The notes: generated by a model not told the origin, from the sequence alone. A DNA stretch of 64,000 bases from Candidatus Bathyarchaeota archaeon (GCA_963726255.1 CAVSBL010000002.1:608001-672000); one strand, 5' to 3'; shown: positions 32,924-63,124, counted from the stretch's first letter. Numbers and translations are program-made.

Positions 32924-32966
32924 CGGGTGGATCCACCCGTCTAGGGGTGGTGCCAAACGGTGCCAA
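32924..32966 (+). repeat. Bipartite palindrome/direct-repeat motif, copy 1
   Basis: C-GGGTGGATCCACCC-GTCTAGGGG-TGGTGCCAAACGGTGCCAA. Confidence 0.9.
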
Positions 32967-33143
32967 GAGTTCGGCGTTGCAGATCAGGAAGCTTGGCATG
33001 TTGAGTTGCTCGCCCTCGGATGGAGGGTTGTCACCCGCAGAGCCAAAACATCTACCATGCGGACGTTCAAGCATGGGGAAGCAGCGGCATTGAAGCGAGA
33101 AGCCCACAGCCCATAGGCGTGTGAGGACATCACTTTCTTCTTC

Positions 33144-33185
33144 GCGCCCAGCTATCCTGCTGGGCTGGCCGTCTTATTTTCTTCT
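33144..33185. repeat. 42-bp direct repeat, copy B
   Basis: GCGCCCAGC-TATCCT-GCTGGGCTGGCCGTCTTATTTTCTTCT. Confidence 0.85.
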
Positions 33186-33922
33186 TCGCCCGGTAAGGGG
33201 AAGTGCGACGGAGCAAACACCTGCGAAGATTCGGGGGGTGTGGTGAGGGGTTGTCCGCGGCCGAGGAAGTTTCGGGCGTCCACTCTTTGGTTCAGGACGC
33301 TGGCTGGAAGCGTGATGAAGGCCGGGGCGCTTCCCGAAGCGAGCACGTGCACCGCGTACAAGTCAAGGGTCGAGAGCATGGGCGGTTGCGAGGCTCGGGT
33401 CGGCGTGGCCATCGGGTCCATTACATCTGAGCTGTCGAGAATGCTTCCTAACCCTAGGACTCGTCCCAGCTCGTGCAGAGCCAGCCAAAATGGGTACTGT
33501 CCTGCCGTTAAGTTATCTGCCACGTTGAAGGTCGCGGGGTCGAGGTATGTCTGGGTTGATTTTATCAACGTCCTTGAGCCGGGCTCAAACTTGTAGTTTG
33601 TCCACCCAACCGCAATCCCTGCATAGGCCTTCGGCATATCGAAGCTAACCTTAGCGTTAGCGGATCCATCGTTCACTTCAACGAACGTGTAAACTGGGCT
33701 GGCAGCGCCCTGCCAGAGCTGAGCCTGGTTCCACGCAACCATCGCGTTCACCACAACATCATGCGCCCACGCCGGGAACTGCGGAACAGAGATGCTGATT
33801 ACAAGCGACGAATAACGGCCGATGATCGGAATCGACGGCTGAGCCGACGCGTGCACTGGAACCGCCAGGGTCAGCAGTAGTAAACCTAGGGTAATGGCGT
33901 ACGCTGAGCTACTTCGTCGCAA
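33152..33922 (-). CDS. Secreted matrixin/M10-like protein with degenerate Zn site
   Basis: Signal peptide, AWNQA, ALHELGRVLGLGS, DVMDP Met-turn. Confidence 0.75.
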   Translation of the reverse strand: MRRSSSAYAITLGLLLLTLAVPVHASAQPSIPIIGRYSSLVISISVPQFPAWAHDVVVNAMVAWNQAQLWQGAASPVYTFVEVNDGSANAKVSFDMPKAYAGIAVGWTNYKFEPGSRTLIKSTQTYLDPATFNVADNLTAGQYPFWLALHELGRVLGLGSILDSSDVMDPMATPTRASQPPMLSTLDLYAVHVLASGSAPAFITLPASVLNQRVDARNFLGRGQPLTTPPESSQVFAPSHFPLPGEEENKTASPAG

Positions 33923-34042
33923 CTATTGTCTAGATGAATAAGTCTAGTATTCTAGAAATGATGACCGTAACCACACATGGAACACTATGGTGACATTTCT
34001 ACAACAACATACGCTGTAAGCTGCCCGCCCTGGCTTAGGGAA

Positions 34043-34525
34043 TCAAAAGTACCGAAGCGGCGCAGGCTGGGGAATTCCTAGCCGAACAGACATTCGTTTC
34101 CAGATGCTAAGGCGAATGGGAGTATGCACTTCCGAAAGTTTATTGGTCGTTCTATCGAGAGCGAACCATTGCTTCTCATGGCAGGTTTCGCATTCAACCT
34201 CGTTCTCGCCGGTTGCCTTGAGGTTTCGGCATCCGCAGACGCGGCAGGCGACGCGTGTAGCTATGCGCACACTGTCGCTCCGTTCGCGAGATTTTGGGTC
34301 GTCAATTGACCGCAACAGGCTTACGGTTTGAACTGGGGAGATGGCGCCTGGTTTCCGTCGGATCTGCACGTCGGGATATTGTCTGATTTCTATAAACTCC
34401 CATCGGGCCAGGAATTCAACGGTTTGCTTCAGCGTGCTTTCGTCTAGGCCTGAGGTCTGTTTCAGCGTCTCCTGGCTTTCCCATTCCAGTTCGGGTATCG
34501 CTGACCAGACAGATTCGAGGAACAT
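34043..34525 (-). CDS. wHTH plus Zn-ribbon protein
   Basis: N-terminal HTH-like helices; CRVCGC...CETC. Confidence 0.65.
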   Translation of the reverse strand: MFLESVWSAIPELEWESQETLKQTSGLDESTLKQTVEFLARWEFIEIRQYPDVQIRRKPGAISPVQTVSLLRSIDDPKSRERSDSVRIATRVACRVCGCRNLKATGENEVECETCHEKQWFALDRTTNKLSEVHTPIRLSIWKRMSVRLGIPQPAPLRYF

Positions 34526-34722
34526 TATCCCGCAGTCTCAAATACGGGTTAACCCGTGACGGAAGGTAAGTCCACTGTCACTGAAGTTCGTCAACGTCAG
34601 TGTCATAGAACAATCTAGAACACTCGCAACAATCTTCTATATGCGAGTCAACCCCAACTTTGCGCTACCCCGGACGCAAACGCCTAATGGTGCGCCCAAT
34701 TTTCTAGTGGCCCAGATGGTTC

Positions 34723-34968
34723 TTGGCGCGCAGGAACATGCTCCTCCGTCCCGTGGCCTTGACGATGTTCGTTTTCGGCCTGCTAGTGTGGTTCTATGTC
34801 ATCCTAATTCAGGTTACGCATCCTGAATGGCTTCCCGCGCAATTCTCGCACGTGGGCTTTCCACCTTTCAATTGGCGGCTCGACGAGGTCGGTATGCTTG
34901 CATTCGCCGTTGCGATTGCCGGGTTCTTCTTGTGGCAACTCAACGAAACCAAGCCTCGCGCCGGGTAA
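34723..34968 (+). CDS. Small two-TM membrane protein
   Basis: Two hydrophobic helices flanking QVTHPEWL. Confidence 0.6.
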   Translation: MARRNMLLRPVALTMFVFGLLVWFYVILIQVTHPEWLPAQFSHVGFPPFNWRLDEVGMLAFAVAIAGFFLWQLNETKPRAG

Positions 34969-34985
34969 TCACGGATTTCGCAGCG

Positions 34986-35028
34986 TGGGTGGATCCACCC
35001 ATAGACGGCTGGCGCCAAATGGTGCCAC
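34986..35028 (+). repeat. Bipartite palindrome/direct-repeat motif, copy 2
   Basis: T-GGGTGGATCCACCC-ATAGACGGC-TGGCGCCAAATGGTGCCAC. Confidence 0.9.
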
Positions 35029-35295
35029 CCATTTCTCCACCGAACAGCGATGACTAGCCCGTTATCCCGAGAAACTTGCTTTGGACGCTGAAACTTTCCC
35101 ACCCTCCCTCAAACGCCCCGTCCGCACGCTCAATCACAAACATAGCAAAGTAACATAGTTGGCTCCAAAAATAGCGCCACCCCCCTACCCCCTCCTCCAC
35201 GCGCAGGCGCACAGCAACCCCTCTCGCCTACGCGAACAAGGTAGCTCAAAACGCGGGGCGCAACGTACCCCAAGAAACTGAGGTGCGAACGTGGC

Positions 35296-35586
35296 CTACT
35301 TCTTTCTTCGGCTGGACGTTCTGCGAGGCGTTTTCGCGGCGGGCTCAGCGCTTACGGGTTCTGTTTCCAGCGGCGCCGGCGGCGGTGTCGTAAGCATCGT
35401 CCAACCAATCCACGCAGATATCACGAGCACGAGCAAGACGAACAGGAGGACGGGTATCCCAATCGCCCACCACTGCCAAGCCGTCGGCAGCCCAAGGAAC
35501 GGGGCGAAGAACGCAACCAGGTAACCAATCGCAACAATAATCGATATGAAGAAGATCACGAAGCCGTAGCCCTGATCCTTACTCAT
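35296..35586 (-). CDS. Small two-TM archaeal protein, DPM2/PIG-P-like
   Basis: KDQ..G..TM1, WAIGIP..TM2..WIGWTMLTTPPP. Confidence 0.7.
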   Translation of the reverse strand: MSKDQGYGFVIFFISIIVAIGYLVAFFAPFLGLPTAWQWWAIGIPVLLFVLLVLVISAWIGWTMLTTPPPAPLETEPVSAEPAAKTPRRTSSRRKK

Positions 35587-35652
35587 CGAAACTCACAAGC
35601 TACCCGCGCAACTAGCCGTCGAACCCAATATAAGCTTTAGCAAACCCGCGGC

Positions 35653-37500
35653 TCAATTTAGTTGCTTGTACCCCGGTCTCTGACTGAGTTTAACGGGGAG
35701 CTTCAGCGGGATTGTCGGGTAACCTGTGATGGAAGTGGTTATTTCCTTTTCAAGCTCAGAAACATTCGCATTGTACTGTTTTCCGTCCAGCCGGCGGCGA
35801 ACCGCAACCATGTTCGCGTCGGCTTCCCTTTTTCCTACGACGGCAACGTACGGTATCCAGTTTAGTTCAGCTTCGCGCACACGCTTATCGAGGCTCTCAT
35901 CTCTATCGTCGACATCAGCCCTGACATGCGACGCAGTAAGCTGATCAACCATCTTCTGCGCATAGCCCAAGAACTCAGGCCTAACAGGAACAACTCGGAC
36001 CTGCGTTGGCGACAACCACAACGGCAGGCTCGGCTTGCCACCTCGCTTCTCCGTTCTCGCACACTCATCTAGCACCGTGAAGAGGTAACGTTCAATCGAG
36101 CCAATGATAGCGGTGTGGATTATGGGCGGAAATTCTTTTGCACCTTTCTCATCGACGTACGAGATGGCGAAACGTTTCGCGTTCCCCGTATCGATTTGGA
36201 AAGTCGCAATCTCCCTCGGGCGCTCAAGCTCATCGATTATGTGGTATTCTATGTTGAGAACCCAATAGTAGATACCCTCAGGCACAAAGTTCAGCAGTGC
36301 CGGTTTCCCCTCCCGCTTCACAAGCTTCATCACGTAATCCTTGTGTGACTCAAGGAAGCTCTGGGTAATGTTGTAGACCGAGACATAATCCCTGCCAAGT
36401 TTCCCAATTTCCTCGTAGATTTTATCATGCAACTTCAGCGTCACCTCTTTCGCCTCTTCCAGGTTCTTGCAGTAGATGTGGCAGTCAGGCATGTGCAATT
36501 TCCTCAGCCTAAACGAGAGGAGAAGCTCACCGCTTTGCTCCAAACGGTATGAGTCAGCCACTTCGAAGGTGCCGAACGGTAAGTGCCTGTAGCTCAACGT
36601 CCAATTCCTCACCGCCGCAAACTGCTGGTGGCAGGCAGCATACCGCATGACGAAGCTCTTGTTCTCCACCTCAAGCCTATACAGCCTAGAACCGAACAGG
36701 TCTGCATGCTCCTTCACGGCGGGGACGGCTAGGTCGAACATGTTCGTGCCCTTCACCTGAAGAATTGGTAACCCAACAGAGTTCACCGTACTCCACGAGT
36801 ATTCGCTGATCAGGTCGAAGATCATTACGCCCTCAGGGCTGTAACGCATGTGGCCTACGTCGGAGAAGTTTTCCCATTCGATGCCGAACTTCTTGCAGTA
36901 TTCCAGGTATCGCGGTTCCCCGCCGGGCAACCCTTTCTTGAGCGCCTCCTTCTCCACAAGTGTTCGGAACTCCTCCTCGCCCGCTTTGAACACGTACTCA
37001 TCAGGCTCGTAGAGCTCGCCATCCAACGCGAGAACCTTGTAGAACGTCTTCACCGGCGCAGCCTCCGCCTTAGCCTGCTCAGGCCTAATTGTCCGGGATA
37101 GTTCGGAGAGGGGGTGGCCCAGGCAGTGGAGGCTGAAACTCTTGTAATACCCAAATGGGCTACGGTGAACCTCATAGCTCATCTCGTTAAGGGTCATGCT
37201 CATTTGTTGCAGAATCGAAATCGCGGTGCCCGCGGAGGCTAGGCTGCTTGAAAGGTGGGCGTAGGGGTAGACCAAGATGCGGTTCGTTCTTACGGACTTT
37301 GCTACTTCCGCGATGGATTCCGTAGCTTTCCCGACAACTTCAGCGGGATTCTGCTCGTCCTCCTTCTCAATGGTCGAGAAGGCCACGAGCACGTTCTCAA
37401 ATTTACCAGCACGGTTGTTCTCTAGGGGCTCAGGGTTCTTGACCGCGGTCTGGCGGACTTCGTACTCGAACGATTCGCAATGAAGCAAAAGAAGCCTCAT
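35653..37500 (-). CDS. thrS: Threonyl-tRNA synthetase, archaeal type with N-terminal editing domain
   Basis: MRLLLLHC start, YPYAHLSS, PFGYYKSF, RYAAC, HTAIIGSIER. Confidence 0.95.
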   Translation of the reverse strand: MRLLLLHCESFEYEVRQTAVKNPEPLENNRAGKFENVLVAFSTIEKEDEQNPAEVVGKATESIAEVAKSVRTNRILVYPYAHLSSSLASAGTAISILQQMSMTLNEMSYEVHRSPFGYYKSFSLHCLGHPLSELSRTIRPEQAKAEAAPVKTFYKVLALDGELYEPDEYVFKAGEEEFRTLVEKEALKKGLPGGEPRYLEYCKKFGIEWENFSDVGHMRYSPEGVMIFDLISEYSWSTVNSVGLPILQVKGTNMFDLAVPAVKEHADLFGSRLYRLEVENKSFVMRYAACHQQFAAVRNWTLSYRHLPFGTFEVADSYRLEQSGELLLSFRLRKLHMPDCHIYCKNLEEAKEVTLKLHDKIYEEIGKLGRDYVSVYNITQSFLESHKDYVMKLVKREGKPALLNFVPEGIYYWVLNIEYHIIDELERPREIATFQIDTGNAKRFAISYVDEKGAKEFPPIIHTAIIGSIERYLFTVLDECARTEKRGGKPSLPLWLSPTQVRVVPVRPEFLGYAQKMVDQLTASHVRADVDDRDESLDKRVREAELNWIPYVAVVGKREADANMVAVRRRLDGKQYNANVSELEKEITTSITGYPTIPLKLPVKLSQRPGYKQLN

Positions 37501-37703
37501 GCTGAGAATCTCCACTTGTCCAGTTGCCGGTCCTTGCACGTAAGCTTCTTGAATTCCCGGTAGTGCGTCTTGCACAAGTAAGCTCTGCGAGCGTTGCCTA
37601 TGTTTAGGCCACTATGTGCGACTTTCTCAGTTGAAATAGACCGCGTAGCAGCGTTACTGCAGCCCACGACGCTGCATTGTTGCCCCTTGCCCACCTTGCC
37701 CAT
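37497..37703 (-). CDS. Small basic Zn-finger protein
   Basis: MGKVGKGQQCSVVGC...YLCKTHY; overlaps the thrS start (ATGA). Confidence 0.75.
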   Translation of the reverse strand: MGKVGKGQQCSVVGCSNAATRSISTEKVAHSGLNIGNARRAYLCKTHYREFKKLTCKDRQLDKWRFSA

Positions 37704-37769
37704 CGAAATCACGCCCAGAAGGCCAAGGGTGCTTGAAAAACTTGGTTTTTCACGAAACGCCCTTAAGCT

Positions 37770-38396
37770 GTGATTCCCATTTGGCGCACGCTGATTCACT
37801 TGTTAGGCAAGTTCAGGGCGAAGTATGAAGCTGCGATGAAGCCCATCGGCAGCCGGCTCGGGAAATCCGGGTTGAAGCCCAACACAATAACCACTCTGAG
37901 CCTCCTAGTTTCAATTTTGGCTGGTGGCGCTTACGTCCTCAAATCACCCATTCTAGGGGCTCTTGGCCTTGTGGCGGCCGGCTTTATCGATATGCTCGAT
38001 GGGGCAGTCGCTCGCGCAACAGGGACGAGTAGCAAATTTGGGGCTGTATACGATCACGTACTCGATAGGTATGCAGAGTTCGCAGTTCTCCTTGGTATCG
38101 GGCTCGGAGGGTTCGTGGGCTGGCCGTGGATAGTCTTCGCACTTTTCGGAATGGTGATGGCCAGTTACACGAGGGCGAAAGCCGAGTCGGTTGGGGGCCT
38201 CTCAAGCTGTACCGTAGGCATCGCGGAGCGCCAGGAAAAGATAATTCTACTGCTAATAGGTTCAGTGCTTCAGCCATACGTTAACGTGGCGCTCACCTTC
38301 AGCACGATTGCGGTGGGTTTATTGTCGCACGTGACCGTGGTCCAGAGACTTCACTACACACTCAAACAAACTCGAGGCCAAAACGTTGCACTATGA
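37770..38396 (+). CDS. CDP-alcohol phosphatidyltransferase (archaetidylinositol-phosphate synthase-like)
   Basis: PNTIT, DMLDGAVAR...G..YDHVLDR, SYTRAKAE. Confidence 0.9.
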   Translation: MIPIWRTLIHLLGKFRAKYEAAMKPIGSRLGKSGLKPNTITTLSLLVSILAGGAYVLKSPILGALGLVAAGFIDMLDGAVARATGTSSKFGAVYDHVLDRYAEFAVLLGIGLGGFVGWPWIVFALFGMVMASYTRAKAESVGGLSSCTVGIAERQEKIILLLIGSVLQPYVNVALTFSTIAVGLLSHVTVVQRLHYTLKQTRGQNVAL

Positions 38397-39315
38397 TCTG
38401 GTAGGCATCGGCAATCCCGTGTATGACATCATCGTCACCCCCTGGACCAAAACAAACGGCCGAGTTCTTTCAGGATGCAGTACCAACGCTTGCCTTGCGG
38501 CGAAACGGCTTGGCATGGAGAAAGTGGGCTTAGTCGGATGCATTGGCCCAGACTTTGCGCGAAGATTTGCGGATGACATGAAGAACTTTCACTTAGACTC
38601 CAGAATGGAGGTCGGCGGGACGGAGACGGGTGGGTTCCACCTCATCTACGATGAAAACGGCAATAGGACCCTGGACGTTCTGGGCGTGGCCGGAAAAATA
38701 ACGCCAGAGAACTTTCCGAAGGAGTTCTTGGATGCGGAATACCTATTGATCGGCCCAATCCTCGGCGAAGTAAACGTTGAGCTTCTCCAGTTCATACGCT
38801 CGTCCAGTTCCGCAAGAATATTCCTGGACCCGCAGGGCTTGATCAGAGTAGTCGGAAAGGACAGGCGCATCGACCATCAATGCAACAAAGACGAATTTCA
38901 CAAAATTAGCAAGTTAGTTGACTTTGTCAAACCGAACGAGCACGAGAGTGAAACCATAACCGGAGAAAGGGACCCTGTACTCGCCCTCCGCAAACTAGGG
39001 GATATGGCGAAGGGCGTGCCCATGGTTACGCTTGCGGAAAAAGGGTCTCTACTAATGAATGCTGATAGGCTGTATCGAATCCCACCCTATCCCACACATG
39101 CTACCGACCCCACAGGCGCGGGAGATGTTTACGCCGGCTCCTTCATCACTGAATACAAGAAAAGTGGCAGTCTCCCAGAGGCCGCCCTCTTCGCCTCGGC
39201 CGCAGCATCAATAATGGTCGAACAAACTGGGCCTGATTTCAAGATGCCCCTGGATGAGGTGCTGGAAAGAAAGGAAGCGATCCGCGGTCGTCTGACCGTG
39301 GAGCGGCTGGCTTAG
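38386..39315 (+). CDS. PfkB family carbohydrate kinase
   Basis: KPNEHE, DPTGAGDVY. Confidence 0.9.
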   Translation: MHYDLVGIGNPVYDIIVTPWTKTNGRVLSGCSTNACLAAKRLGMEKVGLVGCIGPDFARRFADDMKNFHLDSRMEVGGTETGGFHLIYDENGNRTLDVLGVAGKITPENFPKEFLDAEYLLIGPILGEVNVELLQFIRSSSSARIFLDPQGLIRVVGKDRRIDHQCNKDEFHKISKLVDFVKPNEHESETITGERDPVLALRKLGDMAKGVPMVTLAEKGSLLMNADRLYRIPPYPTHATDPTGAGDVYAGSFITEYKKSGSLPEAALFASAAASIMVEQTGPDFKMPLDEVLERKEAIRGRLTVERLA

Positions 39316-39587
39316 TAGAAGTGCCTTTCGTCTCTCGATCTTACCTTCGTAAGCCCGAAGTGTACAGCGCAGGAGACGCAGTAGAACTTGACGACTCGCT
39401 GCCGTGCGATGTACGTCCCGTGGGAACGCAGTTCACGTGCAAGGGACGGTTCCACCAACGAAATCCATTGCGTGTCGCGCTTAGCCTTGTCCCTAGGAAC
39501 TGGCCTACCACAGTTAGTGCACTGAATCATCTCGCTCCGCCCCTTACCTCCCTTACTTCGGCCGCGAGATTTTCTCTTCTTCGTCAA
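39312..39587 (-). CDS. rps26e: Ribosomal protein eS26
   Basis: MTKKRKSRGRSKG, CTNCGRPVPRDKA, YCVSCAVH. Confidence 0.95.
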   Translation of the reverse strand: MTKKRKSRGRSKGGKGRSEMIQCTNCGRPVPRDKAKRDTQWISLVEPSLARELRSHGTYIARQRVVKFYCVSCAVHFGLTKVRSRDERHFY

Positions 39588-39662
39588 ACCTTATCCTCCA
39601 CCGTAAACTCGCGTCTGCCGTGCTTAAACGTTGTTGTGGGTGCTAGGCGTGGGTTGGAGCGA

Positions 39663-41113
39663 CTAGTAAGATTTCGCGAAGTATGCAACCTTCGCAGTAG
39701 GATTTTCGCAATAGATGCAGCTTGAGAATGGCTTCTCCTCGACGAGAGGAATAGTGCGTATAGTAGCCCCTGTCTCAGTCTTTATCGCCTCTTCGCACTC
39801 GCCTCGCCCGCACCAGCATGCCCTCACGAATCCCCGCGGACATTCAACGTTTTCTTGAATTGCGCATAGTCACTTGCTTGGGTTATTGAATCGGTGAGTG
39901 CTGACTTAGCCTTAGAGAAGAGAGCCTTCTGAATCTCGTCGAGGCATCTCTGAACTTCACCAACGATGGCGTCATCTTTGACCGTGAGCTTCTGCAGGTT
40001 GTCGCGCCGGACCAATGTCACTTGTTTCTTCTCAACGTCCTTCGGCCCGATTTCCATCCTAAGCGGGACCCCCTTGAGCTCCCATTCGTTGAACTTCCAC
40101 CCAGGCGTGTACTGTTCACGGGAGTCCACATGCACCGCCAGGCCAGCCTTCCTTAACTGGTCAGCAGTTGATCGAACCTTTTCCGAAACCGTTTCAGCCC
40201 GCTCAGTCTTGTAGTATATGGGAACGATGACAACTTGAATCGGAGCAATTCGAGGCGGCACGACCAATCCCTTGTCGTCGCTGTGAAGCATGATCATCGC
40301 GCTGATCAGCCGCCACGAGACACCCCAAGAGGTTGTCCAAGCATAGTGGGTCTGCTCGTCTTGCCCTAGGTATTTGATCTCGAAGGGCTTCGAAAAGTTC
40401 TGCCCGAGGTTGTGTGACGTACCCATCTGCATTGCTCTGCCATCCGGCATGATTGCTTCAAGGGTTGTCGTGTAGAGGGCTCCAACGAACTTCTCTTTCT
40501 CGCTTTTATACCCGAGCAGAACTGGGGCCGCCATCTGCTCCTCGACCAGCTCCCGGTAGAATTCCAGTATCATCATGACCTCCTTGTCCGCATCTTCTTT
40601 AGTAGCGTGCACAGTGTGGCCTTCCTGCCAAAGGAACTCAGAGGTTCTGATGAAGGGTCGAGTAGCAGTAATCTCAGACCGCAGTACCGAGTTCCAGAGG
40701 TTAATCAACAGCGGTAGGTCTCGCCAGCTTCGAACCCATTTCGAATACGCGTCGTTGACTATGGTTTCAGATGTGGGACGAACCGCGAGCCGTTCGGAGA
40801 GCTTATTCTCTCCTGCCTCCGTTACCCAGAACACTTCCGGGGTGAAACCTTTGAAGTGCTCAGCTTCCTTCTTGAGGTAACTTTCCGGAATGAAAAGCGG
40901 GAAGTAAGCGTTCGAGTGCCCGGACTCCTTCAGCCTCCCGTCCAACCACTCCTTAATTTTCTCCCATATCGAATACCCATAGGGCCGAAGAACCATGAAA
41001 CCCTTCATCGGAGCGTAGTCAGCAAGTTCTGCCTTAGTCACTACCTGTGTGTACCATTCCGAAAGGTCCTCAGCCTTCTTCACAGTAATGCCAATTTCCT
41101 TACTCAACACCAA
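39663..41113 (-). CDS. proS: Prolyl-tRNA synthetase, archaeal/eukaryal type; frameshift at the 39832-39835 homopolymer
   Basis: VRPTSET, FIRTSEFLWQEGHT, GTSHNLGQNF; the C-terminal Zn domain (ACWCG...CIYC...FAKSY) continues in another frame to TAG at 39663. Confidence 0.93.
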
Positions 41114-42847: not shown

Positions 42848-42855
42848 GGGTTGTT

Positions 42856-45663
<2,808 letters not shown>

Positions 45664-50012: not shown

Positions 50013-50026
50013 GACGAATTGATCCT

Positions 50027-54767: not shown

Positions 54768-54892
54768 TTTTCCGGTTTTTGGCAGTTCTTCAGTTAGATG
54801 GCTAAGGGGTTGTTCGCCTTAAAATTGGTTCTCTGCTCTTGGAATCTTATCGCGTCCACGCTTATACATGAAAACCTACTCTGTCTCTCGTA

Positions 54893-54970
54893 GGGCGGGT
54901 AGCCTAGCCTGGATAGGGCACAGGCCTCCGGAGCCTGAGGTCGGGGGTTCGAATCCCTCCCCGCCCGCCA
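54893..54970 (+). tRNA. tRNA-Arg(CCG), CCA encoded, intronless
   Basis: GGGCGGG/CCCGCCC acceptor, CAGGC-CTCCGGA-GCCTG anticodon arm, GGTTCGAATCC. Confidence 0.95.
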
Positions 54971-55036
54971 ACACATTCCCCGGTGCGGGAGCCAACAGTT
55001 TAACTATCCAGGTTACTCGTTGCGCTCGGATGACTC

Positions 55037-56062
55037 TTGGCGAAAAGCGTCGCTTTGATCAAAGGGGACGGAACTGGCCCTGAACTTATCGATGCGACCC
55101 TGAAAGTCTTGAAGGCCGTTGGCACGAACGTGGAAATTCTTGCGTGCAACGCAGGCTTTGAATGGTGGCAGGCCCACGGTGGGGCAACACTGGTGCCGGA
55201 TGAGAGTTGGAAGATAATCGAAGCCGCGGACGCGTGCTTGAAAGGCCCAACAACGACACCTGCTGGCCCGAACACTCCGCGGAGTGTGGCAGTTAGTATT
55301 CGTCAGCGTATGAATCTCTACGCGAACATTCGGCCTGTGAAGACGTTTGAGGGAACGAAACGGCCGCTCGGCGATGTGGAGCTCGTTTGCGTTCGTGAGG
55401 GTACTGAAGGCCTCTATTCAGGAATCGAACATCGCCTATCGAATGATGTCGCCATCGCCTTCCGCAAGATCACTCGTGAGCCAAGTCAGAAGCTCGCTAA
55501 GCGGGCTTTTGAGGAAGCGAAACGGCGAGGGTGGAAACGCTGCATCGCCATCACGAAACAGAATATACTGAAGGAAACGGACGGGCTCTTCATGGATGCA
55601 ACGAGGACCGTGCACAAGGATTACTCTGGGATCAGTTTGGAGGAGTATTTCATAGACAACTTTGCGCAGCAACTTATCAAGAACCCGCAGCGTTTCAATG
55701 AGAGCATCATATTCGGAACGAACCTTTTCATGGACATAATCTCCGAAGAGGTCTCAGCGCTGGTTGCGAGCATCGGGTGCATATACTCCGCGAACTTCGG
55801 GGATAATTACGCAATGTTTGAGCCGGCACATGGAAGCGCTCCGGCTTACAAAGGCCAGGACAAGGTAAACCCCACGGCAACGGTGCTAGCAGGCGCCTGG
55901 ATGCTGGAACACCTAGGCGAGAAGAAGAAATCTGAAGCCATATTCAGAGCAACCCGCGATGTCATCGCGGAAGGAAAGAAAGTAACGTACGACCTCGGTG
56001 GCACTGCCCGCCTCTCAGAAATGGCCGACGCCATAGCTGAACGCGCACAAAGATACCTGTGA
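55037..56062 (+). CDS. Isocitrate/isopropylmalate dehydrogenase family protein
   Basis: GDGTGPE, LYANIRP, FEPAHGSAP. Confidence 0.9.
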   Translation: MAKSVALIKGDGTGPELIDATLKVLKAVGTNVEILACNAGFEWWQAHGGATLVPDESWKIIEAADACLKGPTTTPAGPNTPRSVAVSIRQRMNLYANIRPVKTFEGTKRPLGDVELVCVREGTEGLYSGIEHRLSNDVAIAFRKITREPSQKLAKRAFEEAKRRGWKRCIAITKQNILKETDGLFMDATRTVHKDYSGISLEEYFIDNFAQQLIKNPQRFNESIIFGTNLFMDIISEEVSALVASIGCIYSANFGDNYAMFEPAHGSAPAYKGQDKVNPTATVLAGAWMLEHLGEKKKSEAIFRATRDVIAEGKKVTYDLGGTARLSEMADAIAERAQRYL

Positions 56063-56133
56063 ATACTCAACCGTTTTGACGACTAGATGCTCCCCCAATA
56101 AAGTTAGGCAAGCCAAGCAGTTGACAACAAGGA

Positions 56134-56622
56134 CTAAGGTCCGCCGCTCTTCGTCGAACGTTCAAAGGCCTCAAACCAAGTCTTGTTCTTCCCGGCAAAT
56201 TCGACGAATTTAGCGATGCGGTCGATGGTTGCTTCGTGGACGTGGTGTTCAATCCCTTCGGCATCTGAATTCGCAATGTTCTCGCTTACACCAAGAATCC
56301 GAAGAAACTGAGTGATGACAAGGTGGCGTTGTTCCACTGAACACGCCAAGCGTTTGCCTCTTTCGGTTAGCGTAGTTCCCCGATAGCGCTCGTAGACTAC
56401 TAGCCCCATCCCGTGGAGCCTTTGCAGCATGTTTGTAACGCTTGGCGACTTGACGCCTAGGTACTCAGAAATGTCAACCGACCGAGCGTATCCCTTCTCT
56501 TTCATCAATTCGTAGATGACTTCTAGGTAGTCTTCCACGCTCGACGTAAGATCTGAAGACGGCTTTCTAGCCTCCCGGAGTCGTGACAGAATATAGCTAG
56601 TCTGCCTTTTCTCAATCGGCAT
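56134..56622 (-). CDS. DtxR/MntR metal-dependent regulator
   Basis: EDYLEVIYEL, SPSVTNML, DAEGIEHH. Confidence 0.9.
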   Translation of the reverse strand: MPIEKRQTSYILSRLREARKPSSDLTSSVEDYLEVIYELMKEKGYARSVDISEYLGVKSPSVTNMLQRLHGMGLVVYERYRGTTLTERGKRLACSVEQRHLVITQFLRILGVSENIANSDAEGIEHHVHEATIDRIAKFVEFAGKNKTWFEAFERSTKSGGP

Positions 56623-56750
56623 CGTGCGCGCCTCAACATACCTGTCCAAGGCTCCTGCTTTATAGCTCCGCCATCTCAAAGCTGCTTGCAGGCATGACGC
56701 GGCACGCAAATACCTATTTGCCTGCACCTTCGTTAGCAGAATGGACACAC

Positions 56751-56951
56751 ATGTCGAAGCCGGCACAAAAAAAGACTGACTTCCCCGACGAGGAAATTGA
56801 AGACATATTGGACATGCATGCGCCTATCGACCTGTTGCGAGAGTTCCGCAAAGCAGCTCAAGAAAGCCCGCTGCTGGTGACAGGATTGGCCTTTGCGTTC
56901 GGCTTGCTTATCGGCGCCTCGTTATCTAATGGGAACAAGAAATCCCGTTGA
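56751..56951 (+). CDS. ElaB/YqjD (DUF883)-like tail-anchored protein
   Basis: Charged N-terminus then ESPLLVTGLAFAFGLLIG TM and basic tail. Confidence 0.6.
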   Translation: MSKPAQKKTDFPDEEIEDILDMHAPIDLLREFRKAAQESPLLVTGLAFAFGLLIGASLSNGNKKSR

Positions 56952-56977
56952 CGTTCATATCATGAGGCAGCAGTAAT

Positions 56978-57199
56978 TTGTCGAAAAGGGAAAAAGACCT
57001 GGAGCCCGAGAAGACCGAGCAATACCTAAAGGAACTCCGAAAAGACATGGACAAACGGTTAGGCGAACTCAAGGTGCAGATGGACGATCTTCAACAAAGA
57101 GCCGCACAGAAAGTTACGGAACAGCCCCTGATAGCCCTTGGCGTCGCTTTCGTGGCCGGCATGGCACTAGGAGTTGCGTTATCGAGGGCCGGCGACTAG
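56978..57199 (+). CDS. ElaB/YqjD (DUF883)-like tail-anchored protein
   Basis: Coiled coil then EQPLIALGVAFVAGMALGVALSR. Confidence 0.7.
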   Translation: MSKREKDLEPEKTEQYLKELRKDMDKRLGELKVQMDDLQQRAAQKVTEQPLIALGVAFVAGMALGVALSRAGD

Positions 57200-57210
57200 G
57201 AGACCAGACA

Positions 57211-57510
57211 TTGCCAGAAAAGGAAGGTTCCACATTGTTGGAGAGGCTCGCGCGATTGGTTCTGCGAGAAGCCTTGGGCGGCATCGTCAAACCTGCGGAA
57301 AGATTGGCAAAACGGGTTGCTCGGGCCGTCGGACTGATTCTTGCCGGAGTCGTCATCTCTGTTCTTGGAATCGCGTTTCTGGCCGTAGGTGCTGTCAAGT
57401 GGTTGGCGATATTGATGCCTGTTTGGCTGGCCTGGTTCTTGGTCGGAATAATCCTCTTCTTAGCGGGTGTTGCAGTCACAGCAATAACGTTCTCGACCGG
57501 GCGTGGCTAA
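57211..57510 (+). CDS. YqjE/holin-superfamily-like two-TM protein
   Basis: Amphipathic N-terminal helix plus two TMs, directly after the DUF883-like genes. Confidence 0.6.
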   Translation: MPEKEGSTLLERLARLVLREALGGIVKPAERLAKRVARAVGLILAGVVISVLGIAFLAVGAVKWLAILMPVWLAWFLVGIILFLAGVAVTAITFSTGRG

Positions 57511-57531
57511 GACGGCGTCGAAGCTTCTTGC

Positions 57532-57912
57532 CTAGCTAACATGGCCGGTCTTACTCTCGTAGAATTCATCCACAAACCGAGAAAAATCGCTGAAGTTGCT
57601 CAAAACGACGCCAAACGAGGAGCCTTTATCGATAGAGACGACCTTTTCGAGATACGCCTTTGCTGAAGTTGGGTCGCCTTCGTAAAGCGCAAGTTTGGCC
57701 GCGCTGGCAAATCGATTCATTGCCACGACTGAATTCCCGTTTTTCAGTAGATTTTCAGCTGCAGACGCAATTGCCTTGCTGTTCGGATACTGCGCCACGA
57801 GCAAGTCTGGATTAAGCAGGACTAACGTAGCGGCGGCGCGTTTCTTATCTTCACTCAGTTTCAGCTTTTCGGCGATGCTTTCGAAGGAATCGTAGCTCAC
57901 CTGTGGCACCAT
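57532..57912 (-). CDS. Hypothetical helical (TPR-like) protein
   Basis: 126-aa ORF with AKLALYEGDPTSAKAYLEK. Confidence 0.55.
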   Translation of the reverse strand: MVPQVSYDSFESIAEKLKLSEDKKRAAATLVLLNPDLLVAQYPNSKAIASAAENLLKNGNSVVAMNRFASAAKLALYEGDPTSAKAYLEKVVSIDKGSSFGVVLSNFSDFSRFVDEFYESKTGHVS

Positions 57913-57952
57913 TCCTATACTTTGCAGGGCTGTTGTGATACTGAGAAACTAC

Positions 57953-58834
57953 TTAATTGTTCTTGCCGAACTGTGTTATGCCAACGCCCAACATTGTTAA
58001 GCCGGAGAAGGCAATATCGAGGGTTGTGAAACTTTCCTTTAAGACGATGACAGATATCAAAACGGCCAGAACGGGCATCGTGAAGAGAAGAACGTAGAGC
58101 CGAAACACTTCAGTACGCTGAAGGACATCATACCAACATACAAGCCCCAGACAGTACATGAAGGAAAGAAGCAATAGTGCCACTATGACCTCGTTCGACA
58201 ATGCCGCCGGCCACTGGTTCCTCTCGAAGACAAACGCGGAAAACGTGAACAATGCGGCACCGAAAACAAATGTTAGTGTTACTACGAACATCGGTTGGTA
58301 TTTCTTCAGTAAGACCTTCCCAACGATTCCAGACAGAGCGTAAGATGCTGCAACTCCCACTTGAAGCACGTTTCCGACAAATACCGACCCAGCAAGATTC
58401 GCGAGATTGCCTCCGGTCGAAAGAAGGATTACGCCAAGCATCGCAACCATCACACCTGCTACTTCTCTCCGCCCGACCTTCTCCTTTAGGAGGGTGAAAG
58501 AGAGCAGCAACGTGAAGACTGGGGTAATCGATTGGAGGACGCCACTCATGGAGGCGGTGGTGTACTCGAGCCCAATGTTCTGCAGCAGGTTGGGCATGAA
58601 TATCTGAGCAATTGACAAACCAAACACGATCGATAGGTCGTGCTTCGTCACGCCCGATGTGCTTCCGCGGTAGTGAAAGAGAGTCAGTGGCACGATTAGA
58701 GATGACGCCAAATCGAATCGGAGCGCCGCCACCGTAAGCGGTGGCAATTCTGTAAGGGCAATTCGTATCAAAGCATATGCGGAGGCAAAAACAAACAGGG
58801 CTATTACGCTTTCAACAAAGTTGCGGAAGCTCAA
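57953..58834 (-). CDS. EamA/DMT transporter
   Basis: Ten TMs; PPLTVAALRF, GLEYTTAS, LLKEKV. Confidence 0.9.
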   Translation of the reverse strand: MSFRNFVESVIALFVFASAYALIRIALTELPPLTVAALRFDLASSLIVPLTLFHYRGSTSGVTKHDLSIVFGLSIAQIFMPNLLQNIGLEYTTASMSGVLQSITPVFTLLLSFTLLKEKVGRREVAGVMVAMLGVILLSTGGNLANLAGSVFVGNVLQVGVAASYALSGIVGKVLLKKYQPMFVVTLTFVFGAALFTFSAFVFERNQWPAALSNEVIVALLLLSFMYCLGLVCWYDVLQRTEVFRLYVLLFTMPVLAVLISVIVLKESFTTLDIAFSGLTMLGVGITQFGKNN

Positions 58835-58912
58835 GTTAGGACATCAATTCTGCCCGGTGCACGCACGCGATAGCATTAGCCCGAACGGGAAATCTAATCA
58901 TCAAAAGCTGTG

Positions 58913-59230
58913 TCAGGGAGGCGAACTGGGCTCATTTGACAGAAACCTGATAACCTTTCCCGGGCCGAGCTTCTCGACCACGACTTTCCTCTCGTCTTCA
59001 TTCAACGGTTTGTATTTGAGGTGAGTATCGGTGGAGCTTGCATAGCGCCCTGCGACCAAGCACGCGTTGGCATTCTTCTCCTTGTAGATGGTTATGGGTT
59101 TGTGAACGGCTTCCGGGTCGGTCCCCGCATACATGTAGGCGATTGCATCTTCATACTTCGCTTTGTCCTCGATCCTAAGTAATACGAGCTGTGAATCGTC
59201 GGGTTTCATGTTTTGCTCAGTATCGGCCAA
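58913..59230 (-). CDS. Hypothetical protein
   Basis: 105-aa ORF just downstream of tRNA-Cys. Confidence 0.5.
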   Translation of the reverse strand: MADTEQNMKPDDSQLVLLRIEDKAKYEDAIAYMYAGTDPEAVHKPITIYKEKNANACLVAGRYASSTDTHLKYKPLNEDERKVVVEKLGPGKVIRFLSNEPSSPP

Positions 59231-59335
59231 ACGTAAAAACCCTTCCAGAGGAAATTGCCCGCATGAGAGAGAGGGCCAGAGGCGCCACTGATCACTTCAG
59301 AGCCGTTTTTGCCGCAAACGTCAAACCGCAAGTTG

Positions 59336-59483
59336 TGGAGCCGGGGATGGGAATTGAACCCACCTCAGCGATTCTCGCTTTCTATACTGCGGGTTGCGGC
59401 AAGCTTTAGTCTACTGCAGCCCGCCGCCTGGACCGTTCGGCCTTCGGTGGCCATAGGCATCAAACCCAAAGACCAACCCCGGC
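59336..59483 (-). tRNA. tRNA-Cys(GCA) with three introns (8/9, 37/38, 48/49)
   Basis: Exons 59483-59476, 59442-59414, 59394-59384 and 59363-59336 join to a 76-nt cloverleaf with GCA anticodon, U73 and CCA. Confidence 0.9.
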
Positions 59484-59561
59484 ATTTTCCCCGGCGAATG
59501 AACCGTTCACGCACATAGCTCTAATAAACCTGCACGTAAAGCTGTAATTCGCCGATGGTTC

Positions 59562-59891
59562 TTGAGTCATGTGATGTCGATGGTTGATTCGCAAGAAGAC
59601 CAGGTGCCGCTGTTCTTCAAGTTATGTTCGGATCACCTTTCAATTGAAGCCATCCCAAGAAAAGCTCTTACTATCAACATCGAAGGCATGAAGGATAAGT
59701 CGATCCGCGAGCACGAAGTGATGATGTGGACTCCCCATTTTGTTGTGCTGAAGAATTCGAGCGGACAGGAGATTACTCTTAGGCGAGATGGGCGAATGGT
59801 AGTAAGAAAAGCGGATACAGAACAGGTTGCGCGAGAGGCCGCCACGAACGTTATGCATTTAGCCTTGAAAGAGTTCGGAAGCCGAGCCTAG
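59562..59891 (+). CDS. Stand-alone homolog of the MoeB/E1 C-terminal domain
   Basis: KLC...P.K.L.I...HEV...TP..VV....GQEITL.RDGRM aligns with the C-terminus of 60584..61618. Confidence 0.75.
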   Translation: MSHVMSMVDSQEDQVPLFFKLCSDHLSIEAIPRKALTINIEGMKDKSIREHEVMMWTPHFVVLKNSSGQEITLRRDGRMVVRKADTEQVAREAATNVMHLALKEFGSRA

Positions 59892-60577
59892 ACGGTCAGA
59901 ACACGAGCGGACTGAACGGCCCTTGCAACCATGCCGTCAATGTCCAATGCCGTTTCGACCTCGGCTAGTCGGTTCCTCCTGGCTGAGGTGCTTGGGTTGT
60001 CTGTTGGAACTCCGCAGCTAGCGACCCCTGGGCGGATTGAAACTTCATAAGTACCAATTTCAATTGCGAACTTCACGATTTGCTGCTTGTTCATTCCGAC
60101 AAGTGGCCTAAGCACCTGAACCTTATTCAGCACACAGTCTGCCGCTACGATGTTTTGGAGCGTTTGGCTGGCCTTCTGCCCGACAGCGTCACCTGTGACA
60201 ATTGCGTTACACCCCTCCCGGTCGGCTATTCCTTCGGCAACTCTAAACATGATCCGCCTGGAAAGCATGCACGCGAACTTCGCCGGACACTTGGACAAAA
60301 TAACTTGGAGGTCAGGCGCGTGAGAGACAACGTATACGCGTGCCCCCTGAAGTTTTGCTCGCTCGCACAGCCTGCGAACAGTTTCTATGGCAAGGCTTTC
60401 GGCTGCTTGGTCGCAGAGTGGGTAATTATCGAAATAAACGAAAACCGGTTCTACGCCTTTCCTCATCAATAACCATGCTGCGACTGGGGAATCGATACCG
60501 CCGGAAATGAGGCACACGGCTCTCCCGGAAAGTCTGAGTTCCGGGGATTCTATTGTTTGTGGAGACTGTAGCGACAG
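59888..60577 (-). CDS. thiI: ThiI-family PP-loop sulfurtransferase domain without THUMP; probable CTG start
   Basis: SGRAVCLISGGIDSPVA, GDAVGQKASQT, RPLVGMNK, IGTYEVS. Confidence 0.82.
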   Translation of the reverse strand: MSLQSPQTIESPELRLSGRAVCLISGGIDSPVAAWLLMRKGVEPVFVYFDNYPLCDQAAESLAIETVRRLCERAKLQGARVYVVSHAPDLQVILSKCPAKFACMLSRRIMFRVAEGIADREGCNAIVTGDAVGQKASQTLQNIVAADCVLNKVQVLRPLVGMNKQQIVKFAIEIGTYEVSIRPGVASCGVPTDNPSTSARRNRLAEVETALDIDGMVARAVQSARVLTV

Positions 60578-60583
60578 TTTCTT

Positions 60584-61618
60584 TCACCCTTCACCGACCA
60601 GCTTGGCGACCTCGGCTGAAATTGCGAGTGCCTCTATCTCGTTTCGTACGTTCTTGATCAGCATCCGCCCTTTCCTAAATAGACTTACTTCATGCCCACT
60701 GAAGTCGAAGACGATAACCATTGGCGTCGTCAATAATACCCTGTGGTTTCGCCCGATAGTTCTAGCCAGTTGGTCCAGGTCAACGGATAATGGCTTCTCC
60801 GGGTTGACATTCGCAGTCTCTGATCCGCACAACCAGGCCAACTTACGAGAATAGTTTGGTGTAGTAGTCAGCTTTGCCTGGCAGACTCCACAGTCAGCAC
60901 GGATGCTCAACCTCACTGTTCGATATTCAGACTGCGCGAAATCGAATATCAGCAGTCTTCCCATCGATTGGGGGTCGATTCCCGCAAGCGCCTTCACTGC
61001 CTCCATCGCCTGAATAGCTCCAACAATTCCAGTGGTAGCACCCAGCACACCGCGAGTATCGCAAGTTGGCAGGTCCACGTCGTTCAGACCCGGCAAGATA
61101 CACTCTAAACATGGGGTTTCAGGGCTCTTGAATACTGCTACGTTCCCTTCCATCCCGATTGCCCCCCCAAAGACGAACGGTGTCTTCCTCGTCACGCAAA
61201 AACGGTTGATAATGTACCGCGTTTCCATGTTGTCAAGCCCATCCACAACGCAATCTGCTCCATCTAAGATCGCCGGGACGTTCTCGGCATTCAAGTTCTC
61301 TGGGACGGGATTGACTTCAACCTCAGGATTGATCATACCAATTCTGCGTGCAGCAGCTTCTACCTTCGGATACCTGATATCGCCTAGCGAATAGAGAACC
61401 TGCCTGTGCAAATTGTTTACTTCTACAGTATCTTGATCTATGAGCGTTAGTTTTCCGACACCTGCGAGCGCAAGGTAGAGCGCTGAAACACTTCCCAAGC
61501 CACCTAATCCCACAACGGCAACTTTCGAGTCATGCAGTTTCTTTTGGCCGCTCGAACCGAGTTCCTTCAGAACCAATTGCCGACTGAAGAACTCATCTCT
61601 GTCGAAATCTGCGTGCAT
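60584..61618 (-). CDS. MoeB/ThiF/UbaA E1-like adenylyltransferase with extra C-terminal domain
   Basis: FSRQ, VGLGGLG, NNLHRQ, DGLDN, CLEC, catalytic TC, CGVC. Confidence 0.92.
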   Translation of the reverse strand: MHADFDRDEFFSRQLVLKELGSSGQKKLHDSKVAVVGLGGLGSVSALYLALAGVGKLTLIDQDTVEVNNLHRQVLYSLGDIRYPKVEAAARRIGMINPEVEVNPVPENLNAENVPAILDGADCVVDGLDNMETRYIINRFCVTRKTPFVFGGAIGMEGNVAVFKSPETPCLECILPGLNDVDLPTCDTRGVLGATTGIVGAIQAMEAVKALAGIDPQSMGRLLIFDFAQSEYRTVRLSIRADCGVCQAKLTTTPNYSRKLAWLCGSETANVNPEKPLSVDLDQLARTIGRNHRVLLTTPMVIVFDFSGHEVSLFRKGRMLIKNVRNEIEALAISAEVAKLVGEG

Positions 61619-61671
61619 CTGTTGCTCACGCCAAAATATGGCAACGCGGGCTTTCAGTGTATAGGCGCGTT

Positions 61672-62892
61672 TCAAGAATAGAAGGGTAGTCCTAGCTTGG
61701 CAAGCCTGTATTTGAAGTACGGCCACGCCAATTTGGCTCGCACGTCCCGATACCGTAACGACCCATCCATCAATCCCACCATGCACTCCTGCACTTTCCG
61801 TTCTGAGAAGAAGAATTTGGCAACTCGTTCCATGTCATATTGCTCCAAGTAGCTGAAACAGGCAACACGGCATGCAACATCGAAATCGATCCCGAAGGCC
61901 TTTCGGCAACGTCGACCGTAACGGCCGAGAAAGCCCTTATCAAACCGACCCTTTTGGCATGCTTCTTCGGCTGTTTGTGCCGCGATCTGTCCACCCAATA
62001 TCGCGAAATAAATGCCCTCCCCGAGAAGGGGCTCGGCAAATCCGCCTGAATCGCCAGCGAGCAGAATCCTATTAGTAGCCAAAGGCACTTTGGCAATGCC
62101 GCCAAGCGGAATCAAATGAGCTTGTGGCCTCGGAACTTTTCGCCCACGCAGCTGAGGGATTTGCTTCACAAACCCATCGAACAGAGCGTGCGCATCACGA
62201 AGCCTGCTCAGGCGGCAACCCACCCCGACCGTCAGATGGTTGTCCTTTGGGAAAACCCAGCCGTACCCGGCAGCGGAGACGCCGAAGTATATGTCAAAAT
62301 AAGATTCGGGGCCAACGAAATCCTGTACACCTGTCTCTCCAACAGGAACTTCGCTTTCGATAGCGTAGGCGACTTCGTGGGGTTTCCACCGATCATAGAG
62401 CTGCCCATAACCTGCGGTTGGGCCACCCATCCCATCAGCACCGATAATCAGCCTTCCTTCAAATGAGCCATGGGAAGTTTTCACTTGAATATGAGAGTCG
62501 TTTGTTTCAATTCGCTGTGCAGGAGTTCCATCTTTGAGTTCTGCGCCAGCCTCCACAGCCTTGTCGGCTAAGAATGAGTCCAACCTGGTGCGAGAAGTCA
62601 TATAGACAAGCGTGCGGTCCGATTCGAAGTTGAAGCAATCTTCGTCGACATGAATTCGTGTCGACCTGGCAGTATATTCGATGAGTTCGTCAGGTAGGCT
62701 GAAGCCGAGTAATTTGATGACCTTAGGAGTAACGCCCCCGCCGCACAATTTGCTTCGCGGCAGCTTATCTTTCTCGAGTAGGAGAGTTTTCAGTCCGAGT
62801 TGGGCAGCGGTCCTCGCGGCTGAAGCACCTGCAGGCCCTGCTCCGACAACGATCAGGTCGTACAAGCGAATCTTTGCTCGACGCTGTAACAT
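61672..62892 (-). CDS. Geranylgeranyl reductase family flavoprotein
   Basis: VVGAGPAG, KLCGGG, IGADG, GYGWVFPK, LAGDSGG...GEGIYFA; start uncertain (62892 or TTG 62865). Confidence 0.9.
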   Translation of the reverse strand: MLQRRAKIRLYDLIVVGAGPAGASAARTAAQLGLKTLLLEKDKLPRSKLCGGGVTPKVIKLLGFSLPDELIEYTARSTRIHVDEDCFNFESDRTLVYMTSRTRLDSFLADKAVEAGAELKDGTPAQRIETNDSHIQVKTSHGSFEGRLIIGADGMGGPTAGYGQLYDRWKPHEVAYAIESEVPVGETGVQDFVGPESYFDIYFGVSAAGYGWVFPKDNHLTVGVGCRLSRLRDAHALFDGFVKQIPQLRGRKVPRPQAHLIPLGGIAKVPLATNRILLAGDSGGFAEPLLGEGIYFAILGGQIAAQTAEEACQKGRFDKGFLGRYGRRCRKAFGIDFDVACRVACFSYLEQYDMERVAKFFFSERKVQECMVGLMDGSLRYRDVRAKLAWPYFKYRLAKLGLPFYS

Positions 62893-63080
62893 TCTGCATT
62901 GTAGAGTGAGCGACAAATTAAGAGATTTTCCTGGACCTGAGGGTGCAAGCCCAAGTTATTATCATGAGTAATTCGGAAAGGAACCATACTTTAGGAATCG
63001 AAGGATTCAATTTGCTCCCGGGTCTGTAGATCGCTTCGTATTAGGGGATCGGGGCGTAAAATGAAGCGAGAGTTACCTGA

Positions 63081-63124
63081 GTTTGGCACCGTTTGGCACC
63101 ACCCTTCGACGGGTGGATCCACCC
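63081..63124 (-). repeat. Bipartite palindrome/direct-repeat motif, copy 3
   Basis: Minus strand GGGTGGATCCACCC-GTCGAAGGG-TGGTGCCAAACGGTGCCAAAC. Confidence 0.9.

Follow-up and report, generated by a model that had tools for sequence, protein, structure and literature searches.

A near-invariant 45-nt core of a dispersed repeat family in one Bathyarchaeia genus and its possible origin as a viral pac-type packaging site

The pac sites of headful-packaging phages usually lie inside the gene that precedes the large terminase gene. Packaging signals of archaeal viruses are, to our knowledge, essentially uncharted, and small terminases are hard to recognize. Small terminase (TerS) proteins are described as having an N-terminal DNA-binding part and a helical oligomerization part (PMC6854486). 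Phage P22 is reported to use pseudo-pac sites in the Salmonella chromosome (PMC10996546), and the MITEs (miniature inverted-repeat transposable elements) shared by viruses and their hosts are described as lying inside viral genomes (bioRxiv 10.1101/2024.01.18.576219). Here, we analyzed a bipartite DNA element that occurs three times in a 64,000-nt stretch of a Candidatus Bathyarchaeota archaeon genome (G000:C2:608001-672000, part of a 2.36-Mb contig; hereafter, the window). The names of homologous proteins assign the organism to Candidatus Bathyarchaeia. The motif belongs to a family of dispersed repeats, restricted to one Bathyarchaeia genus, and forms its near-invariant 45-nt core. There is, in our judgment, an even chance that the core is a virus-derived recognition site of a ribbon-helix-helix (RHH)-like protein of the small-terminase type, i.e., a pac-type site, that was scattered through host chromosomes as fragments. 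Our literature search, which had bioRxiv supplements outside its scope, returned no description of a pac-type site on a MITE or other repeat, or of an orphan or domesticated terminase cassette.

The 14-bp palindrome GGGTGGATCCACCC has exactly three exact occurrences in the window (32925-32938, 34987-35000, and 63111-63124). Shuffled versions of the window contained it 0.20 times on average, and none of 100 shuffles reached three. In all three copies, the palindrome is followed by 9 nt and then by a GGTGCC-type direct repeat, which reads TGGTGCCAAACGGTGCCA in copies 1 and 3 and TGGCGCCAAATGGTGCCA in copy 2; copy 3 lies on the minus strand. The arrangement on which the original prediction was built is thus real, as is its placement of the copies outside credible genes: all three are intergenic between credible open reading frames (ORFs), and the only ORFs that overlap them are short and implausible. 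The extent given to the copies was too short: the repeat runs on for ~107 nt in copy 3, a shared 5′ arm adds 46 nt to copy 1, and copy 2 amounts to a unit of 68 nt.

The same element recurs elsewhere in the genus. G000 contains 10 exact palindromes, compared with 1 match for a control pattern, 12 matches to the loose bipartite pattern, and 12 nhmmer matches to a long-form model at E ≤ 1e-6. The strict pattern identified 60 copies in 7 of the 23 genus genomes (G000, 8; G004, 3; G011, 1; G013, 23; G014, 7; G015, 11; G021, 7) and none in 18 genomes from other genera of the order, and a relaxed pattern had no match in 287 non-genus genomes of the class. Metagenome contigs yielded 107 matching stretches; the metagenome copy counts given here rest on 80 of these, corresponding to 64 distinct copies. 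All 60 strict matches are 39 nt long, though the pattern permitted a gap of 6-10 nt, so the fixed geometry holds beyond the window. The consensus over 33 distinct copies is ga-GGGTGGATCCACCC-nTcgaG-GGGTGGtGCCAAACGGTGCCAA. Nearly every core position is at least 90% invariant among these copies, and the 6-nt spacer occurs in 18 variants. The 45-nt core is laid out as GGGTGG..CCACCC, the 6-nt spacer, GGGTGG.GCCA, and then GGTGCCA 10-11 nt further on. Read from the sequence, its half-sites are similar and would be arrayed along one face of the helix. A rarer second subfamily with the same layout is also present in G000 (e.g., at 196168, 1652781, 1694807, and 2116247). The base pair flanking the palindrome, which had been taken to co-vary, behaves as expected by chance, with complementary flanks in 8 of 30 copies vs 5.5 expected from base frequencies. 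A copy at G000 C2:2247570 lacks exactly one 10-nt GGTGCCAAAC unit, as slippage between direct repeats would give; at this place, three core-related copies lie within 2.6 kb, close to a tRNA gene.

A fixed-geometry DNA module that is probably bound by protein had been proposed, and this part of the proposal stands. As RNA, the direct repeats would not pair, and the copies have no orientation bias relative to genes. Based on long-ORF calls, 11 copies lie between convergent ORFs, 9 between divergent ORFs, and 7 and 6 are co-directional; 17 of 50 copies were dropped from this count, having no called ORF on one side or lying under an ORF call. A first impression that the G000 copies trail co-directional genes was not upheld by this wider count. 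We consider it extremely unlikely that the element acts as a structured RNA, such as a small RNA, a 3′-untranslated-region stabilizer, or a terminator. The palindrome and the overlapping CCACCC-N6-GGGTGG could each fold as a hairpin, and several G000 copies lie directly past stop codons. However, no Rfam family matched: a search of the window at the gathering threshold and of 10 loci at E ≤ 0.1 returned only tRNA matches and one sub-threshold tmRNA match. RNAalifold, applied to both strands of 22 long copies, predicted palindrome hairpins only, with no covariation and no compensatory changes. The sole possible pairing of the direct repeats is broken by a frequent GGAGCC variant and by the subfamily-B variants, and the absence of a strand bias relative to genes also argues against an RNA.

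The fixed geometry, with half-sites along one helical face, could also suit a host cis-element, i.e., a parS/centromere, a nucleoid-organizing site, or a Xer/dif-like core. For the last of these, the core offers an 11-6-11 arrangement (TGGATCCACCC-N6-GGGTGGTGCCA), in which two 11-nt arms match at 9 of 11 positions around the 6-nt variable spacer. We nevertheless regard a host cis-element as very unlikely. The core is found in only 7 of 23 genus genomes and in none outside the genus, numbers from 1 to 23 copies per genome, and is present or absent between sister species. In G000, the copies are spread between 0.4 and 2.25 Mb and lie in both orientations, and one copy overwrites the end of a gene. 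A dif site is expected once per replicon, so the 11-6-11 geometry is there but the copy number does not fit. A parS or centromere site was rejected on the patchy, scattered, and insertion-polymorphic distribution, with the partition genes themselves not being searched for. The proximity of genes for DNA-binding proteins, to which attention had also been drawn, reflects no link: the RHH-like 179-aa protein encoded at 63453..63992 is unrelated to the terminase-associated family described below (probability 2.9%). Overall, what survives of the original prediction is a protein-type site tied to mobile DNA, whereas the parS-, centromere-, and nucleoid-type functions it favored do not.

Window copy 2 (34970..35037, plus strand; core 34987-35027) is a clean 68-nt insertion directly 3′ of the stop codon of a small ORF (34723..34968). 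The orthologous site of the sister species G021 lacks exactly these nucleotides within flanks of 91% identity, and the triplet CAC is found at both junctions. The G000 copy at C2:885762 is absent from the orthologous sites of G004, G015, and G014. This insertion (L005 in G000, and its G021 orthologue) replaced the stop codon of an upstream 713-aa gene, with the new stop lying within the element's spacer. G015 and G014 also lack the copy at 408569. The family is therefore multi-copy, non-coding, and present or absent at orthologous sites, as mobile repeats are; it is insertion-polymorphic, and at least window copy 2 is a recent insertion.

The link between the core and viruses comes from the longest version of the repeat, which forms the leader of a terminase cassette of ~2.1 kb. 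G004, G013, and G015 each have a copy whose 5′ arm is 55 nt long and whose palindrome is followed, 110 nt on, by the ATG of a 165-169-aa ORF without a family match. The next ORF (315 aa) matches Terminase_6N (4.7e-8) and phrog_2 (7.6e-26), and the last one (182 aa) matches Terminase_6C (1.3e-8). The unit from -55 to about +2005 (~2.06 kb) is 90%-91% identical among the three genomes, while its flanks differ. The ratio of nonsynonymous to synonymous substitution rates (dN/dS) is 0.10-0.17 for all three ORFs, which corresponds to purifying selection. No capsid or portal genes are present downstream of the cassette. The cassette large terminase (TerL; ≥78% identity) was found in four of the seven core-positive genomes and in none of the 16 core-negative genomes, and more distant TerL genes occur in both groups. 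At the corresponding locus (1338296), G000 and G021 retain the element together with a homologue of 174 aa, but not TerL. The full cassette context accompanies 2 of the 64 metagenome copies. Many dispersed copies include between 8 and 120 nt from the start of the 165-aa ORF (the G021 orthologue of the 885762 copy, L001, L005, L013, L044, and four metagenome copies). Because these copies contain its coding sequence, they derive from the cassette and not the reverse, and they look like the truncated left part of the unit.

Within the cassettes (L104 in G004, and the L102/L103 cassettes), TerL is encoded by two ORFs in different frames, one for the ATPase and one for the nuclease, and the same holds for viral contigs (L111:1965-3420, L110:3989-5637). 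The place of the split coincides in viruses and host cassettes, and purifying selection acts on both parts; the split is therefore natural, or else a programmed frameshift, and not decay. G000 also has a second large terminase, unsplit and 443 aa long (C2:1322405-1324224), which stands alone among host genes near a Suf/Nuo cluster, accompanied by a small-terminase-like ORF of its own and by an RHH-like ORF. This neighborhood is where G015 and G004 hold the cassette.

Viral relatives of the cassette TerL, with 57%-83% identity, are encoded on the IMG/VR contigs L109-L116. Their genes are ordered as methyltransferase, an uncharacterized gene for a 169-193-aa protein (the terS position), TerL-N, TerL-C, and portal. 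The viral terS-position protein is homologous to the family of the G000 174-aa protein encoded at C2:1337684-1338208 (97.8%, E = 1.3e-12) and to the 165-aa ORF product (97.2%), whose RHH-like domain is missing its first ~27 residues. The family matches RHH profiles below threshold only: of 27 members, nine have a NikA-like match and four an RHH_1 match. An AlphaFold model of the G000 174-aa protein (predicted local distance difference test score, 74.5) had no PDB match at E ≤ 0.001.

The terS-position genes themselves contain sites that resemble the core. At least one GGGTG-N4/5-CACC(C) palindrome lies just past the RHH-like helices in seven of the nine gene types examined, compared with a genome-wide rate of ~1 per 76 kb (31 matches in 2.36 Mb). 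The genes of L111, L112, and L114 contain GGGTGGCTTCCACCC, 6 nt, and GGGTGGCTGCCAA, a layout that is the same as that of the core. One palindrome is present in the L110 gene and in a G000 paralogue, and two are present in each of the G000, G014:C4, and G017 genes. The G019 gene contains one 12-mer twice, in two different reading frames, while the L109 gene and the 165-aa ORF have no such site. The best match of a hidden Markov model (HMM) of the core was the in-gene site of L111, on the right strand, with E = 0.042 (searched in 243 kb, i.e., both strands of 121.6 kb of loci); at the in-gene site of G017, E was 1.5-3.9. The L111 match is suggestive of a viral kinship of the core. It had been proposed that the idea of a conserved element would fall if the copies were fragments of one degraded coding sequence. 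This is partly the case, in that the core and 5′ arm resemble a stretch within the viral terS-position gene.

We interpret the core as a terminase-recognition site of the pac type, or as an RHH-binding module, because its fullest version is the cassette leader and because the homologous viral terS-position genes hold in-gene look-alikes. The terS-position protein would read the half-site array, and the site would direct packaging. The core may have begun as the packaging site of a related head-tailed virus, in or near the terS-position gene. This viral site would then have been scattered over host chromosomes as fragments and as non-autonomous mobile DNA, and in one species (G013) an IS6-type MITE would have amplified it as its cargo. 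The three copies in the window would be such scattered ones.

The position of the core also raises the possibility that it is an operator through which an RHH-type transcription regulator controls the terminase operon (autoregulation), with the scattered copies being stray or co-opted operators. The ATG of the first cassette gene is ~110 nt downstream of the core, the family of this gene has the sub-threshold RHH-type matches, and RHH repressors typically bind short tandem or inverted repeats. However, in four host homologues, as in the viruses, the site is located within the coding sequence and not in a promoter, many dispersed copies lie between convergent genes where there is no promoter, and the cassette protein lacks half of the RHH-like domain. 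An operator is thus quite unlikely. A pac-type site is favored because the site is within or just before the gene preceding the large terminase, because phage pac sites lie at that position, and because TerS proteins combine an N-terminal DNA-binding part with a helical oligomerization part.

Several observations weigh against a pac-type origin. No core copy adjoins a portal or capsid gene, none of the 64 metagenome copies is near a portal gene, and a terminase is beside only two of them. The exact core pattern had no match in the IMG/VR viral contigs. In G014:C4, the most complete of the proviral remnants, the in-gene site is present and the core is missing, and G000, G021, and G011 hold the core without the cassette TerL. 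The similarity between the core and the viral sites is short and marginal, as the E-values above indicate. The RHH assignment of the terS-position family is sub-threshold, and the fold search was uninformative. Without its first ~27 RHH-like residues, the 165-aa protein may not read the adjoining core itself. Finally, a copy could have landed once upstream of a terS-like gene and then have been inherited or moved along with it.

A related possibility, which we consider unlikely, is that the scattered cores are working targets of an orphan TerS-like/TerL cassette that purifying selection keeps without nearby capsid genes, serving packaging, decoy, or self-mobility. If so, a terminase with tens of chromosomal pac-type sites, employed by the host or by a minimal satellite, could start the packaging of host DNA into the capsids of a helper virus, in the manner of gene transfer agents or lateral transduction. 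Alternatively, the sites could sequester viral terminase as decoys, or the cassette could mobilize itself and its fragments as a terminase-based mobile element.

A less likely reading than a viral pac-type site, but one of some weight, is an ordinary dispersed repeat or MITE, in which the core is conserved owing to a recent spread or to a role in the mobility of the element (binding of a transposase or host factor) and the terminase link is accidental, one copy having inserted upstream of a terS-like gene. The G013 copies speak for it, as they are a clear IS6-type MITE. In this genome, the core and an adjoining sequence (module a) lie in the middle of a 185-187-nt unit with 14-22-nt inverted ends (GGTAACGTCAAGTT...) and 8-bp target duplications. 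Among the 25 core copies examined in G013, 20 have both ends (17 identified by pattern and 3 by eye), 4 have the 3′ end only, and 1 is the terminase-cassette copy; two pairs look like one insertion assembled on two contigs. The 8-bp duplication of the 20 two-ended copies is perfect in 11, has one mismatch in 4 and two mismatches in 4, and is unrecognizable in 1. The cognate insertion sequence (IS) copies encode a PF13610 (IS6-family) transposase, found in 18 of the 23 genus genomes, and their ends match those of the MITE over ~17-18 of 22 nt. The absence of an orientation bias relative to genes and the location of 62 of the 64 metagenome copies nowhere near a terminase are also compatible with an ordinary repeat.

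Against this, the IS copies themselves do not contain the core. The MITE end sequence has 92 matches in G013 vs 20 for a control, but 18 vs 20 in G000, i.e., no excess. From these two results it follows that the MITE explains the G013 burst but not the whole family. Outside G013, the copies share no common inverted ends or duplications, and none of the latter is found at 885762. The window copies have no IS6-like inverted ends and no 8-bp duplication, with copy 2 having only the 3-nt CAC at its junctions, and no perfect inverted ends were found around two G000 IS6-type genes. Moreover, the dispersed copies that hold coding sequence of the 165-aa ORF are cassette-derived, and the look-alike sites in the homologous viral genes are hardly accidental. 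A mobile-element end, another of the identities first suggested, is not supported: in the one clear transposon, the G013 MITE, the core lies mid-element. Outside the MITE, the variable ends on both sides and the 3-nt microhomology at the one exact junction would fit a capture of protein-protected fragments during break repair, though this is speculation.

IS6-family elements were also observed back-to-back, exactly 8 nt apart (L046:755-3830, L047:2383-2392, and L045:1086-1095). In two genomes, this spacer is the palindrome TTACGTAA, which also flanks the G013 IS on both sides and suggests a preferred 8-bp target or a tandem insertion.

The copies are mosaics. In G000, the shared sequence begins sharply near the palindrome and is 45 to ~130 nt long, and in different copies the core is joined to differing 5′ arms and 3′ modules, namely module a (found in 40 of the 64 metagenome copies), a hairpin module, or other repeats. 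An internal inverted repeat, CCTGTAG..CTACAGG, in the "type-1" copies was considered as the element boundary and rejected because copies extend past it. Copy 1 of the window (32878..32971, plus strand) has its core at 32925-32965, consisting of the palindrome, the 6-nt variable spacer, GGGTGG..GCCA, and the 10-nt direct repeat. Its 46-nt 5′ arm is common to copies in G014 and G015, with arm and core together matching G014:C13, G014:C7, and G015:C2 (query 1279-1371), and it resembles part of the terminase-cassette leader (-105..-82). No 3′ module follows in this copy, which borders on another dispersed repeat. In copy 2, the core TGGCGCCAAATGGTGCCA is the most diverged of the three. In copy 3 (63015..63129, minus strand), the core (63124-63084) is followed by ~65 nt of module a. 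It is flanked by a short upstream ORF and a 414-aa reductase-like ORF, and is present also at the orthologous G021 site (L029).

Around copy 1, the window contains two further dispersed repeats (32427-32527, ~77-100 nt; 32967-33133, ~167 nt), the second of which begins 2 nt past the copy. Both match many genus genomes, including those that lack the core. Next to the first repeat, an AbrB/PIN-type toxin-antitoxin pair (31609-32426) is 96% identical to its counterpart in G015 and 92% to that in G011; as neighboring genes are only 70%-80% identical, a recent transfer of this pair is suggested. In several genomes (L039, L041, L035, L036, and G000 C2:1170242), the core is followed by the hairpin module (CTGGTT..AACCAG), and past it by the 3′ end of a tRNA gene that bears an intron or by part of a tRNA 3′ half on the other strand. 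These tRNA pieces look like old integration scars. In some copies, a further 150-nt repeat is inserted within the hairpin module. In the whole G000 genome, the Rfam tRNA model finds just 17 tRNA genes, and most tRNAs seem to have one or more introns.

The analysis provides a testable candidate site and a candidate reader protein family for the head-tailed viruses of Bathyarchaeia, a class of abundant uncultured archaea, together with a selectively maintained terminase cassette without structural genes. If the core is indeed a pac-type signal, its chromosomal spread on mobile repeats would represent a new joint virus-transposon route that shapes gene transfer or defense. If it is not, the family is still a well-delimited, genus-specific repeat that can serve as a marker for virus-host linkage and population genomics.

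Among known systems, the pac sites of P22, SPP1, and P1 and the cos site of lambda (cosN plus cosB repeats) are, like the core, short composite sites with repeated sub-sites at fixed spacing. They share with it the location in or just upstream of the gene preceding the large terminase, and an adjacent protein with an N-terminal DNA-binding part and a helical C-terminal part. In contrast to these sites, the candidate reader is RHH-like and not helix-turn-helix, tens of copies occur in host chromosomes and ride on a MITE, the host is an archaeon, and the system is known from sequence alone. The pseudo-pac sites described for P22 are likewise host-chromosome sequences that resemble a viral packaging site; those, as described, are chance look-alikes, whereas the Bathyarchaeia copies are near-identical, mobile, and insertion-polymorphic.

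Similarities to repeats of other kinds are also evident. The G013 carrier agrees with IS6-family MITEs in being ~186 nt long and non-coding, with 14-22-nt inverted ends starting with GG, 8-bp duplications, and a PF13610 transposase with similar ends, but the motif is internal cargo and not part of the ends, and the window copies have neither the ends nor the 8-bp duplication. Repetitive extragenic palindromic (REP) sequences and bacterial interspersed mosaic elements (BIMEs) resemble the family as short GC-rich palindromic units that are dispersed intergenically and form modular mosaics with other small repeats. The core differs in having direct repeats besides its palindrome and a proposed viral origin. 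An identity as a REP/BIME mobilized by a REP-associated tyrosine transposase (RAYT) was rejected: no Y1/RAYT transposase was found in G000, as PF01797 (Y1/HUH transposase) had no match in this 98.5% complete genome, whereas control genomes were matched. With the MITEs described as shared by viruses and hosts, the family has in common that its small repeats are genus-restricted and have viral counterparts; compared with that description, the cargo here appears to be a viral functional site, and no IMG/VR contig matched the exact core. The element is best read as a packaging-type site joined to a dispersed repeat or MITE, for which an unusual, viral origin is proposed.

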